From: Bacillota bacterium
Lineage (GTDB): Bacteria; Bacillota; UBA994; UBA5500
Direction: 5' to 3'
Length of the DNA: 64,000 nucleotides
Assembly (NCBI GenBank): GCA_012735505.1
Contig: JAAYHE010000025.1
Span: 10,414-74,413, forward strand
Both the position numbers and the translations under genes were made by a program. Positions 17,851 through 59,736 of the stretch are shown here, in pieces (positions within the stretch are counted from its first letter, which is position 1; the number at the start of each line of letters is the position of its first letter). The notes under the pieces are model-generated. The model was not told the DNA's origin and did not search any database. It saw only the letters and a program-made list of their open reading frames with translations.

Positions 17851-18138
17851 TTAACCTATATATGAAATACCCGTGATAGTACCGTCGATGATAATGGCAT
17901 CAGGCAAGATAGAGCGCAAGGTCAGTTTTTGGCCTTCGATAATAAACTCGCCCCGGGAAACTGCTACCCGAATACGGCGGTCGCTATACAAAATCACCCC
18001 ACGGTGGTTTTCTATTGTCAGCTGAATATTGCCGACCATAGTAATACGCGGCAAGTTTAACACCAGGTCTTTCGGCAGCTCTAACACGTCGGTCATCAGC
18101 TTCCGCACCCCAGTTTGCAGCCTTTGTCGCCTTGCCAC
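17851..18138 (-). CDS. yqfC: Sporulation protein YqfC
   Basis: 95 aa with LELPKDLVLNLPRITMVGNIQLTIENHRG, very like B. subtilis YqfC (LDLPQDV..LPRITMIG...IENHRG). GTG start behind GAGGGGG. Confidence 0.85.
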   Translation of the reverse strand: MARRQRLQTGVRKLMTDVLELPKDLVLNLPRITMVGNIQLTIENHRGVILYSDRRIRVAVSRGEFIIEGQKLTLRSILPDAIIIDGTITGISYIG

Positions 18139-18244
18139 CGGCTCGCCCCCTCACCCTCATTCTCTTCTTTAACTTTATGCAGATTGTCCCGGCAAAAGAA
18201 GCAACCCATCGGCGAGGCCGCTGAAAAAGCCCTGTCTGGGCGAA

Positions 18245-18280
18245 TAAGAGGGTACAACACGCGAGGATGACCGCACCGCC
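18245..18280. repeat. Copy A (partial) of the GCGGTCATCCTCGCG intergenic element family
   Basis: Exact 15-mer CGCGAGGATGACCGC at 18260-18274. The flanks GGGTACA..ACA and ACCGCC match the right-hand module of the copies at 39041-39230 and 57193-57423. Confidence 0.6.
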
Positions 18281-18314
18281 CACCTCTCCATCTGTACCTG
18301 ACTTCTTCGAAACT

Positions 18315-18365: not shown

Positions 18366-18545
18366 TTAATAGCGACGCCTCTTTTTCCTTGCGGCTTCTG
18401 CCTTTTTCTTGCGCCTTACGCTTGGCTTCTCATAATGCTCACGCTTTCTCGCCTCAGAAAGGACACCAGAACGCTGGCACTGACGCTTGAATCGCCGCAG
18501 CGCGCTATCTAAAGATTCGTCTTTACGCACTCTTACCTCGGTCAC
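18366..18545 (-). CDS. rpsU: 30S ribosomal protein S21
   Basis: Not in the ORF track (59 codons, GTG start). My translation is (M)[61 protein letters not shown] is GGAGGGAGGGAAACTAA before the GTG. Confidence 0.9.
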
Positions 18546-39040: not shown

Positions 39041-39230
39041 GCGGCGTGCGGTCATCCTCGCGCGTGCCCCTTTCGCCCATGAATGTACCCGGCCTGGGGC
39101 AACTCCCCGGTCGGTCTCTGTGGCCTCCCGTGCGGGCGTGATTCAAAATGCCCCGCCAAGGGCGCCTCATTTTTCATGACCCCCCACTGGCCTGGATCCT
39201 TGGCTACCAGTCCACGAGGATAACAATGCC
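39041..39230. repeat. Copy B of the GCGGTCATCCTCGCG intergenic element family (inverted relative to copies A, C and D)
   Basis: Exact 15-mer at 39048-39062, with a degenerate partner arm at 39213-39224 that still pairs via two G-T wobbles. The reverse complement shares GGCATTG, CTGGTAGCCAA and AGGCCGGGTACA...CGCGAGGATGACCGC with copy C. Confidence 0.7.
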
Positions 39231-39321
39231 GCTGAGGGGCATCACCGCTCGACTTTTGCAACAATTTAAAACTCCTGGGATCTATTTCCGCATCGACGGC
39301 CATTTTCCTGCCTATTGAGTG

Positions 39322-40712: not shown

Positions 40713-41417
40713 CTAACGGCAAAACCGATGCCGACCTATAGTTTTTATATATGGGCGCGACCAAATCCAAGGCGAAGTCGCAGTAGCTGGATTAAAGTAA
40801 TAGAGAGCACCGCCGGTCGGGTCCCACCCGTCGAGTGCCAATTGGGCCGCGCGGTATGCCTCCTCGTTAGGGGCCAAATAGAATTGCCCATCTGCAACTG
40901 CGGTAAAGGCCAAAGGTTCGAAGATTACTCCAGCTATGGTATTGGGAAATAATGGGCTGCGTACCCGATTGAGGATCACGGCAGCGATAGCAACTTGCCC
41001 TTCAAATGGTTCGCCACGGGCTTCGCCATAAATAGCTTTGGCCAATAAATGCAAGTCGTTGGCACTGACCGTTCCCGGTGCTTGCGTAGCAGGCGTTTTG
41101 TTAACAGGCTGCGATGCGGCTCCGCCCATTTTGGGCGTAAAACCGAGGGCGCGAAAAGTAGCAGCATCCACATTGCCTGTCACTGGCAGGCCGTTGCGCC
41201 GCTGAAACAGCTGTACGGCAGCAAAAGTCTTTGCCCCATAAATGCCATCGGCCCAACCACTGAGGTAGCCCCATTTGATTAGCTTTTGCTGTACTAAGCG
41301 CACATCTTCACCACTATTTCCCCAGTACAAATTGCGCTCGCCTACAGCGTACGCCGGTATTGCAATTAGCATGGCTAGTATGATGCTCATAGTTATTGCC
41401 ACAAGCCGCTTCAACAT
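40713..41417 (-). CDS. sleB: Spore cortex-lytic enzyme SleB
   Basis: Signal peptide, a PG_binding_1 domain (G.DV..VQ..L...GY....DG.YG..T..AV..FQ...GL...G) and a Hydrolase_2 domain (ARGEP..GQVAIAAVILNR...FPNTI..V). Confidence 0.88.
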   Translation of the reverse strand: MLKRLVAITMSIILAMLIAIPAYAVGERNLYWGNSGEDVRLVQQKLIKWGYLSGWADGIYGAKTFAAVQLFQRRNGLPVTGNVDAATFRALGFTPKMGGAASQPVNKTPATQAPGTVSANDLHLLAKAIYGEARGEPFEGQVAIAAVILNRVRSPLFPNTIAGVIFEPLAFTAVADGQFYLAPNEEAYRAAQLALDGWDPTGGALYYFNPATATSPWIWSRPYIKTIGRHRFCR

Positions 41418-41451: not shown

Positions 41452-41656
41452 GGCACAGTCGGTCACTGATTTATGCTTTCCAGCCGCTTTACGGAAGACG
41501 CACGCCACCGCTGTGTACTGGCTGGCAGGCAGTCAGGCGGACCTGGGGTTACTGATTAGGCCCGTTGGAACCTGCTCCAGGTCCAAGCAGTTGCCCCAGG
41601 CCTGACATACATGTGGCGTAAGAGACAAGTGCGCGAACATAACTGCGCATCTCGCC
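41452..41656. repeat. Copy D (diverged) of the intergenic element family
   Basis: 41590-41622 (GTTGCCCCAGGCCTGACATACATGTGGCGTAAG) matches the reverse complement of 39070-39103 (first 13 nt identical, about 27 of 33 overall). Arm-like ends GGCACAGTCGGTCAC... and GCGCGAACATAACTGCGC resemble the family arms, but the 15-mer itself is not conserved. Confidence 0.45.
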
Positions 41657-41740: not shown

Positions 41741-41788
41741 GAAAAGTCAAAAGCTACAGGCGCGCCTCTACTAGACGCGCCTGTAGCT
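41741..41788 (-). terminator. Intrinsic terminator after the small Cys-containing ORF
   Basis: 13-bp hairpin AGCTACAGGCGCG-N11-CGCGCCTGTAGCT (41752-41788) followed by TTTGACTTTTC on the minus strand. Confidence 0.75.
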
Positions 41789-41980
41789 TTAACCTTCTTT
41801 TTTTTCTCGTTGGTAGATATCGCATTCGCCACCCTGCCAGTGAATACAAAAATCACAGCGTCTAATACCTTCGCCTCCGACAGCGAAAGTCATTTGTCCG
41901 CCCGCATCATAATGGGTAGCAAATTCACTACATTCCTCAGCTATAGCCTTCAGTTCGGCTGGAGTTGCTGGTGATGACAT
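41789..41980 (-). CDS. Small hypothetical Cys-containing protein (63 aa)
   Basis: Strong RBS GAGGAGGTG 6 nt before the ATG and its own terminator. Contains ..EECSEF...RRCDFCIHWQGGECDIY... I recognise no family. Confidence 0.55.
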   Translation of the reverse strand: MSSPATPAELKAIAEECSEFATHYDAGGQMTFAVGGEGIRRCDFCIHWQGGECDIYQREKKEG

Positions 41981-57111: not shown

Positions 57112-57192
57112 CTAAAACGACCCCCTTTCTAGATGGTTCAAAAACAAGGCACTATCGGTAGCGGTCAAGCTCTAAGCGCCGCACCTGTTGCA

Positions 57193-57423
57193 GGCATTGC
57201 GGTCATCCTCGCGCGCTGGTAGCCAACGACTGTCGGTAAGAGCTCTAGCGCCAAGGAGAGCGGCCAGAAGTCTGGAAGCCTTAACTCATTGCCTGCCGCT
57301 CCTTTATCCTTGGCGCCTCCGTTCTTTTGATCTATAGCTCCCATGCGCTTTACAGATGACGGGCACCGCCGCTTGCTGCTAGGCCGGCTACACATACACA
57401 CACGCGAGGATGACCGCGACGCC
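57193..57423. repeat. Copy C (complete) of the GCGGTCATCCTCGCG intergenic element family
   Basis: 23-nt inverted repeat 57193-57215 / 57401-57423 (20 Watson-Crick pairs, 1 G-T, 2 mismatches) containing both orientations of the exact 15-mer. The 185-nt insert holds a 17-bp hairpin (57248-57264 / 57295-57316). Confidence 0.75.
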
Positions 57424-57597
57424 AACATATCGCGACTGACTGGACCTCTTTTCAGCAACCCCGTCAGACTCATTTCCCTTTCTGCCATAGGATAAGGCTT
57501 GTTGGCTACAGGCTGCAAAACACGAGTTTAGCATAACTTGCCCCGTTATAAGGTGAGGGTCGACGCAAGGTCGACCCCCAAGCCCTTAACACAAGCA

Positions 57598-57927
57598 CTA
57601 CATTTTACCGTTGAAAGCCCGAGAATTTTCTTTGGCTGCATTCACCCAACCGATAAGATCATGAATGACGCCCGACCCGCCTACCATAAAAAACGCACTC
57701 AGTAAAGGACCAATGGCTGGCCACTGAAAGCTCACACCAAACATTTGAAAGAAGTCTAGCTGCGCTCCATAGGATAAGACTAAGGCGACAACAAAAGCTA
57801 ACAGGCCTGGAACATTGATGCCCGCAATCTGCCGCTTTGCATCCAGCTGAGGTATAAGGCACAAAATTAACTCTACGATGCGCTCGACGGTAAAGGAGAG
57901 AAATAACCAGACCATCAAAGTATCCAT
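57598..57927 (-). CDS. Small three-TM membrane protein (holin-like size and topology; function unknown)
   Basis: 109 aa from ATG 57927 (RBS GAGGGGG, 6 nt). Hydrophobic helices are followed by a polar C-terminal tail (NAAKENSRAFNGKM). It is the gene upstream of the amidase. Confidence 0.55.
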   Translation of the reverse strand: MDTLMVWLFLSFTVERIVELILCLIPQLDAKRQIAGINVPGLLAFVVALVLSYGAQLDFFQMFGVSFQWPAIGPLLSAFFMVGGSGVIHDLIGWVNAAKENSRAFNGKM

Positions 57928-58044
57928 ACGTAGCCCCCTCACAGCTATACTGTTTGCTATATCAGTATATTGCAGCTAGAGGAAGCTCGTGCATACACAG
58001 ACGATATTCTGTCGGCCCGAGTCTAGTATGTTGTATGTAGCAAA

Positions 58045-59403
58045 TTAAAGTTGGAGTAAATCAACAGGCTGTAAATTAGGGTTAGTAGCGGCGCCACGAC
58101 CAACTTTGGCCAAGGGATACCATTTGCCATCTATCTGGATGCGTACAATGTCAGCCGTATAGTCGTTGTTGGTACCATTAGCCCTACTATTCTCTAACAA
58201 GGCGGAGCCAACGCCGTAAATGTCTACCGGCACCTTTAGTTCTTCAAATTCACGGATACGTGCCGCATCAAAACCGCCCGTCGCCACAATTTTCACTTCA
58301 CGACACCAATCTCGAGCAACTTCCCGCGCCTCCTCGGGTATTGACCAATTCTCATAGGCCTTGTCAATAGCCTCACGCACTATCCAAACCAACCGCGGGT
58401 TTACACCGCAATCGAGTTCCTTCTTGCCTAAAGGAGGAACCGAACGATCTCGCATATTTCCAGAAGTATCCAGCCTGACTGCTGCCAATTTATACTTTGC
58501 AGCCTCGTCCATATCGCCTTGGGAATAATACTGCCAGTACTCGGTAAACAGTCGCGTCATCACGCGCAAAGAGTCTCGCACACAATCATTGTGAAAATCT
58601 ACTAAAGCGATCCGCGGAATAGAAACCGGCATAATACGGCAAAACTGCAACATGGTTTCAGCAGCGTCACCTAAGAAGCAAGCAATCGAAGCATGAGCAA
58701 TAGTACCCCCGCCCTTGCCTCCCCACCAGCCGCCTTGATCATCGGTAGAAACAATCAGCTGGGAGTTGGTGCCATATTGGGCATTATAGGCTTGTACGGC
58801 CAAAGAGTAGGCGTAACCATGCAATGCCTGTAGCTTATAGTGGGCGAAACGAGCCGGGAAAAACAGGACATCTTTGCCACCAGCGGCAGATAATACTTCA
58901 TAAACGTTGGTAGCTACCCGCGTGGCTTCAGTCAGCACTCCTAACATAGGAGTTTCCAAGCACGCAAAATCACGATAGCGCCCGCGAACTTTTAGTACAG
59001 GTTCTACCCGCAAGTTATTACCCTCATACGAGACAAAGGTACCATCATGTACAGCCTCTACCTCTAATTGGTCGGCGGTATTGACAAAAGTATCATCGTC
59101 GGCAAAATAGCCGGCGCAGTATTTCAGAATTGCCAGGGCTTCATCGACCCCAGCTACCAGCGAAAAAGGCTTGCGCCGGGTGAAAAACTGCATCTCTACC
59201 ACTAGGTCACCATTCTTTACAGTACGGGGGTCAAAACTATTGAGATTCGTTTCACCTTGAAATGTATAGCCTTCTTCCGCAAGGGTTTGTAAAATGCGCA
59301 CCGTGTTAGAAAAATATTCGTCAGAATACCATCCTCGCCGCATGCGTTCAGCGTCGATCTGAAAAATCTCCGGGTCGAGCCGCTTCCCCGTAAATATGCT
59401 CAT
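58045..59403 (-). CDS. pncB: Nicotinate phosphoribosyltransferase (NAPRTase family)
   Basis: 452 aa from ATG 59403 (RBS GGAGGTAAG) with ..WYSDEYF.NT..IL.. and the VRLDTSG barrel motif. Confidence 0.8.
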   Translation of the reverse strand: MSIFTGKRLDPEIFQIDAERMRRGWYSDEYFSNTVRILQTLAEEGYTFQGETNLNSFDPRTVKNGDLVVEMQFFTRRKPFSLVAGVDEALAILKYCAGYFADDDTFVNTADQLEVEAVHDGTFVSYEGNNLRVEPVLKVRGRYRDFACLETPMLGVLTEATRVATNVYEVLSAAGGKDVLFFPARFAHYKLQALHGYAYSLAVQAYNAQYGTNSQLIVSTDDQGGWWGGKGGGTIAHASIACFLGDAAETMLQFCRIMPVSIPRIALVDFHNDCVRDSLRVMTRLFTEYWQYYSQGDMDEAAKYKLAAVRLDTSGNMRDRSVPPLGKKELDCGVNPRLVWIVREAIDKAYENWSIPEEAREVARDWCREVKIVATGGFDAARIREFEELKVPVDIYGVGSALLENSRANGTNNDYTADIVRIQIDGKWYPLAKVGRGAATNPNLQPVDLLQL

Positions 59404-59438
59404 CGTTCTTACCTCCACACTTGAATATTTCTTACGTT

Positions 59439-59556: not shown

Positions 59557-59639
59557 TGGTGTCGGAGGGGGGACTCGAACCCCCACGGTTGCCCATACGC
59601 CCCTCAAACGTACGCGTCTGCCAGTTCCGCCACTCCGAC
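59557..59639 (-). tRNA. tRNA-Leu (anticodon GAG)
   Basis: 83-nt class II tRNA: acceptor GTCGGAG/CTCCGAC, anticodon arm TACGT-TTGAGGG-GCGTA, a long variable arm, T arm GGGGG-TTCGAGT-CCCCC, encoded CCA. Confidence 0.88.
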
Positions 59640-59649
59640 TTTTTCTGAA

Positions 59650-59736
59650 TGGTGCCGAAGGTGGGATTCGAACCCACACGAGCGTGCGCCCACTGCGCCC
59701 TGAACACAGCGTGTCTGCCAGTTCCACCACTTCGGC
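59650..59736 (-). tRNA. tRNA-Leu (anticodon CAG)
   Basis: 87-nt class II tRNA: acceptor GCCGAAG/CTTCGGC, anticodon arm CTGTG-TTCAGGG-CGCAG, a long variable arm, T loop TTCGAAT, encoded CCA. Confidence 0.88.

Follow-up and report, generated by a model that had tools for sequence, protein, structure and literature searches.

The sequence family described here is probably a non-autonomous, non-coding palindromic mobile repeat, similar in kind to MITE, ERIC and BIME elements, that is dispersed in an uncultured Firmicute and its relatives. As such, it is a selfish repeat of the ordinary kind in a new lineage, and is neither a leader RNA of spore genes nor an invertible promoter.

A first-pass annotation of the window, i.e., the whole stretch of 64,000 nucleotides analysed, had pointed to four exact sites of a 15-mer, GCGGTCATCCTCGCG, on either strand. 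We recovered all four, at 18260 (minus), 39048 (plus), 57199 (plus) and 57403 (minus); none of 100 shuffled windows reached four matches, and a search across the window for further sites with up to three mismatches returned none. The 15-mer is the most conserved part of an end motif of ~40 nt, which is not a hairpin by itself. The family occupies four loci in the window, termed c18, c39, c41 and c57, with the following parts.

57199 to 57373, plus strand: module A of c57, an imperfect palindrome of ~175 nt, GCGGTCATCC…CACCGCCGCT (blastn, nhmmer, alignment and consensus fold)
57379 to 57424, minus strand: inverted end-motif fragment of c57, ~45 nt, GGCGTCGCGGTCATCCTCGCGTGTGTGTATGTGTAGCC (end-motif profile, E 2.7e-07)
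39197 to 39235, minus strand: degenerate end motif of c39, GGCATTGTTATCCTCGTGGACTGGTAGCCAAGG (82% to 57202-57229)
39089 to 39185, minus strand: module B of c39, an alternative interior (blastn, 80% to L138 and 73% to L135)
39046 to 39087, plus strand: intact end motif of c39, inverted relative to the c39 body (end-motif profile, E 8.2e-07)
41454 to 41650, plus strand: c41, which has no exact 15-mer and was overlooked in the first-pass annotation (blastn to L132, L128, L123 and L129; nhmmer, E 9.7e-07)
18238 to 18281, minus strand: c18, a solo end-motif fragment (end-motif profile, E 7.1e-08)

At c57, the reported inverted repeat with a nested hairpin is real: its arms (57193-57213 and 57403-57423) are 21 nt long and 90% complementary, and the inner GCGCCAAGGAGAGCGGCC hairpin was confirmed. 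The 246 nt from 57185 to 57430 fold far better than shuffles, with z = -5.0 on the plus strand and -5.9 on the minus strand. The repeat unit, in contrast, is not the 231-nt piece bounded by this inverted repeat, as had been proposed, but the ~175-nt palindrome at 57199-57373. The second arm, with the 15-mer at 57403, belongs to the adjoining end fragment outside module A; a short motif-D remnant (…CTAGGCCGG) links this fragment to the module. This layout of module A, D and inverted end recurs in L124 (753..517). Module A of c57 is 81-87% identical to the other full copies and is the most diverged of the six. About 120 nt of lineage-specific extra spacer beside c57 (57424-57545) match no module found; they hold TTGGCTACAGGCTGC, faintly like TTGGCTACCAGCGCG of the end motif, with no significant score against the end-motif profile, and may be an older decayed fragment.

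The elements GGCATTG, CTGGTAGCCAA and AGGCCGGNTACA are common to c39 and c57 in opposite orientation, as the first reading had it. Between its ends, c39 carries module B, which it has in common with L135 and L138 (GGGGCGTCATGAAAAATGA…GGGGCATTTTGAATCACGCCC…GACCGACCGGGGA..GTTGCCCCAGGCCGG). The claim that all copies are structured did not hold: c39 (z -0.4/-1.2) and c18 (z about 0) fold no better than shuffles, which leaves c57 as the sole structured copy among those first listed in the window. Public records (L154 and L155, 1884-2135, corresponding to 39052-39303 of the window, minus strand) place an 83-aa gene wholly over c39; it has no family match and is almost certainly a spurious call. Family matches were likewise absent for ORFs overlapping the elements, and a protein database search with the ORF over c57 (57165-57518, minus) gave no match.

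The layout of c41 runs from the 3' third of module A (41454-41520) through a C/D module (GGACCTGGGGTTACTG…CAGTTGCCCCAGGCC, to ~41606) into a decayed inverted end, GCAGTTATGTTCGCG on the minus strand at 41632-41646, where the 15-mer has four mismatches. The end of c41 lies 42 nt upstream of sleB (40713-41417, minus; SleB by Pfam match). In the same region, just downstream of a 63-aa ORF, a perfect 18-bp inverted repeat at 41746-41810 (AAAGCTACAGGCGCGCCT / AGACGCGCCTGTAGCTTT, 5-nt loop) is followed by a T-run and looks like a bidirectional intrinsic terminator. The ORF (41789-41980, minus) contains cysteine (…RRCDFCIHWQGGECDIY…) and has no Pfam match; because the relatives L150, L151 and L152 have a 62-66-aa gene annotated in its place between comEA and sleB, it is probably a real conserved small protein.

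The bare 17-mer GCGGTCATCCTCGCGYG gave at least 119 matches in reference genomes, which were single chance matches in high-GC genomes. For a metagenome scan we used a more specific end pattern that fits all four window ends, and it returned 22 contigs. Four of these are the window's own loci (99.8-99.9% identity) and six are high-GC chance matches, while the other 12 carry family copies that resolve into nine distinct new loci of the same organism, an assignment made on GC content (0.51-0.55) and occurrence in the same metagenomes. LSQX01 yielded six loci with intact ends and Ga0116179/80 yielded nine, three of them in common, from which a Lincoln-Petersen (capture-recapture) calculation gives a rough estimate of ~18 intact-end loci per genome; this number is biased low, since the pattern demanded an exact end motif and misses decayed copies such as c41. 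Extension of the window by 7.6 kb at one end (L153) added no further copies; for the protein at the opposite end, no database record was found. Contigs L128, L141 and L144 begin within an element; such breaks are only weakly supported as an indicator of high copy number, the MAG being fragmented elsewhere too. Plasmid, phage and viral collections held no match to module A or the end pattern, and the literature contained no paper with the 15-mer or the MAG accession.

Six copies of module A are full (c57, L129, L132, L131, L122 and L124). They align over ~175 nt with sharp ends, a mean column identity of 86% and pairwise identities of 81-95%, and the two halves of their consensus, 5' and 3', pair with each other end to end to give one long rod. 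The ends, GCGGTCATCC and GGATGACGCGC, pair in eight of eight copies. No reading frame is open throughout all copies, and the copies differ by indels of 1-2 nt, which shows that module A is non-coding. None of the copies are near-identical (maximum 95%), and there is therefore no sign of recent activity. A small toxic peptide or type I toxin-antitoxin system was rejected, given the frame-shifting indels and the lack of a conserved start codon or of a conserved or hydrophobic ORF. An independent sRNA gene was rejected as well, with no conserved upstream promoter and no U-tract terminator after the sharp 3' end. A rolling-circle single-strand origin, a DNA-uptake sequence, the 5' end of a group II intron (GUGYG) and Tn3-type GGGG inverted repeats were dropped too, as they misfit in copy number, context or consensus motifs.

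Around module A the family is variable, with units of 175-237 nt. The 21-nt inverted end motifs are present in two composites, c57 and the 237-nt L124 that resembles it. Solo end motifs occur at c18 and L123, and tandem or inverted end fragments in L131, L135 and c57/L124; L135 and L122 have an additional, degenerate end motif 37 nt upstream. An internally deleted mini-copy in L131, at 109, has the 15-mer fused directly to the 3' terminus. The alternative interior B was found in c39, L135 and L138, and a second palindromic module, C/D (GACCTGGGGTTACTG…CAGTTGCCCCAGGCC), lies in either orientation in c41, L132 and L128. A direct-repeat target-site duplication was visible at no copy, where the extra modules blur the outer boundary and the empty sites are too diverged to define a junction.

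The inverted repeats of 21-23 nt around ~185 nt at c57, with the similar 237-nt unit at L124, would fit invertons, i.e., promoter cassettes that share the inverted repeats of one recombinase. In size and in shared inverted repeats such units resemble the polysaccharide promoter switches of Bacteroides fragilis. Yet four of the six full copies lack the second arm, there is no sigma-70-like promoter inside c57, c39 or c18, and no recombinase was found among the scanned window ORFs or the flanks. The orientation at c57, c39 and c18 is also constant in the window, the MAG GCA_029549805.1, LSQX01, Ga0116180 and Ga0116250 wherever these loci are covered. Base-by-base comparisons are fully colinear with 0 indels and scattered SNPs, none inside c57 or c39, and the c39 locus of the MAG and Ga0116250 has the gene layout of the window; the evidence on inversion comes from the assembled contigs of three or four independent assemblies. 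With a single orientation, no internal promoter and no recombinase in these contigs, we regard the inverton reading as scarcely credible.

All four window loci and all nine new loci are intergenic. In the window, c18 is flanked by rpsU (18366-18545) and yqfC/YabP (17851-18138), c39 by ypeB and comEC, and c57 by the gene of a conserved 114-aa protein without Pfam match (57598-57942, minus) and an Amidase_3 gene. Next to the 114-aa gene lies a gene (58045-59418, minus) for a 457-aa protein whose sole match, to QRPTase_N, is weak, and the order of these two genes upstream of the amidase is kept in all relatives examined. Clusters of tRNA genes are found on the minus strand at 2064-2307 (Val-Met-Asn) and 59557-59736 (Leu-Leu), the latter pair also at the same place in the relative L143.

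Each window locus lies 42-122 nt upstream of yqfC, comEC, sleB or the Amidase_3 gene. This proximity, together with the c57 fold (z = -5 to -6) and the absence of an Rfam match, speaks for a new class of structured ncRNA or 5' leader that regulates spore and envelope genes. The absence of a known RNA family is upheld: at gathering score, Rfam covariance models found only five tRNAs in the whole window, and relaxed scans of c57, c39-c41, c18 and the nine new loci gave nothing relevant. The proximity to spore and envelope genes is literally true of the window, where it is explained by a gene array that runs in one direction and has many such genes, with nearly all genes around the four loci on the minus strand; it fails at the nine loci elsewhere. 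Three of these lie between the 3' ends of convergent genes (NusG_II/DHDPS, purD/TusA-DsrE and ileS/GerAC), and the neighbours of others include ligA, a formate/nitrite (FNT) transporter, an amidohydrolase, a response regulator and DUF1177/PHP. The orientation of copies with respect to neighbouring genes varies, and even in the window c57 and c41 are antisense to the downstream gene while c39 and c18 are sense. Given this variation and neighbours that are housekeeping genes of unrelated function, the link to spore and envelope genes characterises the window and not the family. Furthermore, both strands of the copies fold about equally well with no consistent preference, G-U pairs are not in excess over A-C, module A has no conserved promoter or terminator at its bounds, and three relatives have no c57 ahead of their orthologous amidase gene. 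A leader RNA is therefore very improbable and has largely been refuted already.

The comparison with relatives favours a mobile repeat. Contigs of the MAG GCA_029549805.1 match the window at 99.9% identity, and the closest other genomes are MAGs of uncultured Firmicutes/Bacillota, with identities of 73-78% for the amidase and 62-72% for YpeB. Presence and absence of copies were compared between species only. The spacer that contains c57, from a 106-aa gene to the amidase gene, measures 486 nt in the window as opposed to ~77 nt in L143, L146 and L148, with the same gene order; the c57 position is lineage-specific, its site being empty in these three relatives. The ypeB-comEC spacer, which holds c39, is 338 nt long in the window, 93 nt in L151, 223 nt in L152 (without similarity) and 327 nt in L150, where it contains a diverged C/D module and an inverted end. 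That this site is filled in both the window and L150 could reflect long retention rather than insertion. At least five family pieces lie within 17.8 kb of L150 and form a diverged subfamily with a consensus of its own (GCGGTCATGCTTTGAGCGCGTGTGGCC … GGCCCCAATGCGCTTTACGCATGACACGCGGCC); besides the pieces in the ypeB-comEC spacer, two neighbouring spacers hold at least four more. The spacers flanking holA in L150 (GCA_019137235.1, 10385-10833 and 11849-12190) measure 340-450 nt and are filled with family pieces; their counterparts in L151 are 30-50 nt, and the repeat load differs strongly between close genomes. L144 starts (1-127) inside the 3' half of a diverged module A just upstream of the QRPTase_N-like gene, whereas L143 (7976-8099) and L145 (1-95), sister samples from one project, have a tRNA-Leu and a terminator at this site; the disagreement reflects either a strain-level rearrangement at the repeat or an assembly join. 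On this distribution, the family is old, clade-wide and positionally unstable.

We then considered base pairing in the module A copies of the window genome together with two copies from L150 (L150a and L150b). Across lineages, 93% of the cells are paired over 46 pairs, and 14 of the 46 pairs have compensatory changes, with both sides altered, a number reached by none of 500 shuffles and compared with 0-4 in slid controls. Four terminal-helix positions distinguish L150a from L150b, with the opposite arm carrying the matching change in every case; the differences of these two copies from the window family, at several positions of this helix, are likewise compensated. Within the genome, deviations from the consensus pair comprise nine A-C, eight other non-pairs and five G-U, and the copies decay neutrally. 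Pairing across lineages combined with neutral decay within the genome is the pattern expected of a palindromic mobile element. Folded as DNA (z = -5), the sequence stands out just as much as when folded as RNA.

The compensatory changes would also fit a selected structure of RNA or single-stranded DNA. In quasi-palindromes, template-switch correction can yield paired changes without selection, and the covariation is for this reason no proof of a functional RNA; the same process offers a neutral alternative for the changes in L150a and L150b. It is conceivable, if doubtful, that the hairpin itself rather than its sequence is selected or recognised, either by a hairpin-reading single-strand transposition system so far undescribed in this uncultured Bacillota clade or as a family of functional RNA or single-stranded DNA hairpins retained by the host, for example as modulators of mRNA 3' ends.

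Domestication of the repeat, with the end motif or hairpins bound by a host protein or acting as RNA 3'-end stabilisers or terminators between genes, and with copies kept by selection, is unlikely. Host roles as stabilisers, terminators or protein-binding sites have been proposed for REP/BIME and ERIC. The pairing kept across lineages with its 14 compensatory pairs, the position of three among the nine new copies between convergent genes, a setting in which a hairpin that works in both directions would be of use, the exact 15-mer in four otherwise very different window copies and the filling of the ypeB-comEC site in two diverged genomes are all consistent with such a role. Nevertheless, of the deviations within the genome, 17 cells lose the pair and 5 retain it as G-U; c39 and c18 show no more structure than shuffled sequence; the hairpin is not followed by a U-tract; and orthologous sites in relatives are without copies.

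A mobile repeat of REPIN or MITE kind, the second of three options named at first sight of the sequence, is thus the one that the dispersed copies, the empty orthologous site, the mosaic, truncated and deleted variants and the neutral decay bear out. Module A combines with modules B and C/D, with solo or inverted ends and with deleted copies to form intergenic mosaic clusters. The family would have spread by transposition in trans, with the enzyme presumably encoded elsewhere; candidates are a DDE transposase acting on the inverted ends or a single-strand enzyme of the Y1/RAYT type that recognises hairpins. In agreement with the first-pass annotation, no transposase was found in the scanned window ORFs or the syntenic annotation, and neither the flanks of the new loci nor these ORFs contained a transposase, recombinase or reverse transcriptase; an autonomous parent element or a transposase with family ends was also absent from the flanks and ORFs scanned. 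Palindromic complementarity may be needed, or regenerated, at the time of spread, after which copies would decay neutrally, and most copies are probably relics by now. Any effect at present may be passive, as is known of repeats of this kind, in that a co-transcribed long hairpin can modulate the stability, processing or read-through of mRNA 3' ends.

For annotation, the repeat loci should be masked, as gene callers already place the false 83-aa gene over c39. The family adds a G+C-rich, mosaic, ERIC/BIME-like repeat to a poorly known lineage of uncultured spore-forming Bacillota, and the end motif and module A provide a handle for strain typing and for finding the mobilising enzyme. It opens no new class of regulatory RNA and no phase-variation switch. 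What interest remains concerns the agent that mobilised a G+C-rich hairpin of 175 nt in these uncultured bacteria and the possibility that the hairpin is recognised by its structure.

Among known repeats, the ERIC/IRU elements of Enterobacteria and Vibrionaceae are similar in being imperfect palindromes without coding capacity, about 100-200 nt in length, that form one long hairpin, in lying in either orientation in intergenic, often transcribed DNA, and in numbering tens to hundreds of copies per genome, with sub-families that differ between related taxa (PMC10969869 for ERIC copy numbers and RNase E effects). Size variants by insertion or deletion are a further likeness, represented here by a 66-nt apical insertion in L150a and by the deleted copy at 109 of L131. 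The sequences are unrelated, however, and the present host is a Firmicute where ERIC hosts are Gammaproteobacteria; the unit measures ~175 nt instead of 127 nt, it lies in mosaics with other modules, and no target-site duplication was seen.

MITEs, as defined in PMC10969869 and including Correia/CREE of Neisseria, QMITE2 of Coxiella and RUP of pneumococcus, are likewise small and intergenic with inverted ends and no transposase; their would-be transcripts are very stable stem-loops, and they vary in presence between related genomes. The present family has the size (about 50-500 bp), the non-coding nature and the lack of a transposase of a MITE, along with terminal inverted repeats, dispersed intergenic copies and presence or absence at orthologous sites. 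It differs in being G+C-rich (~55-60%) and not A+T-rich, in a complementarity that runs through the whole element and not the termini alone, and in that no direct-repeat target duplication or parent IS was found in the loci examined.

With BIME, REP and REPIN elements (features and definition of REP/REPIN from PMC3733652) the family has in common mosaics that join a short conserved motif, alternately oriented, to further conserved spacers, a frequent position between convergent or co-directional genes and the maintenance of hairpin pairing. The conserved CTGGTAGCC contains the GTAG of REP sequences. A REP is a palindromic unit of 20-40 bp with a GTAG or CGTC tag, mostly paired in inverted orientation and associated with a RAYT (Y1 transposase) gene that the repeats flank, whereas the end motif here has GTAG and no hairpin of its own, the motif-bearing unit is ~175 nt, and there are ~20 copies rather than hundreds; membership of REP/REPIN fails on unit size and copy number.

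The BOX elements of Streptococcus pneumoniae are modular intergenic repeats of a Firmicute, with boxA/B/C-like parts. A variable module composition, a predicted stable RNA structure and a Firmicute host link them to the family described here, and they differ in their unrelated sequence and in having shorter modules in tandem, where this family has one long palindrome (comparison in part from PMC10969869).
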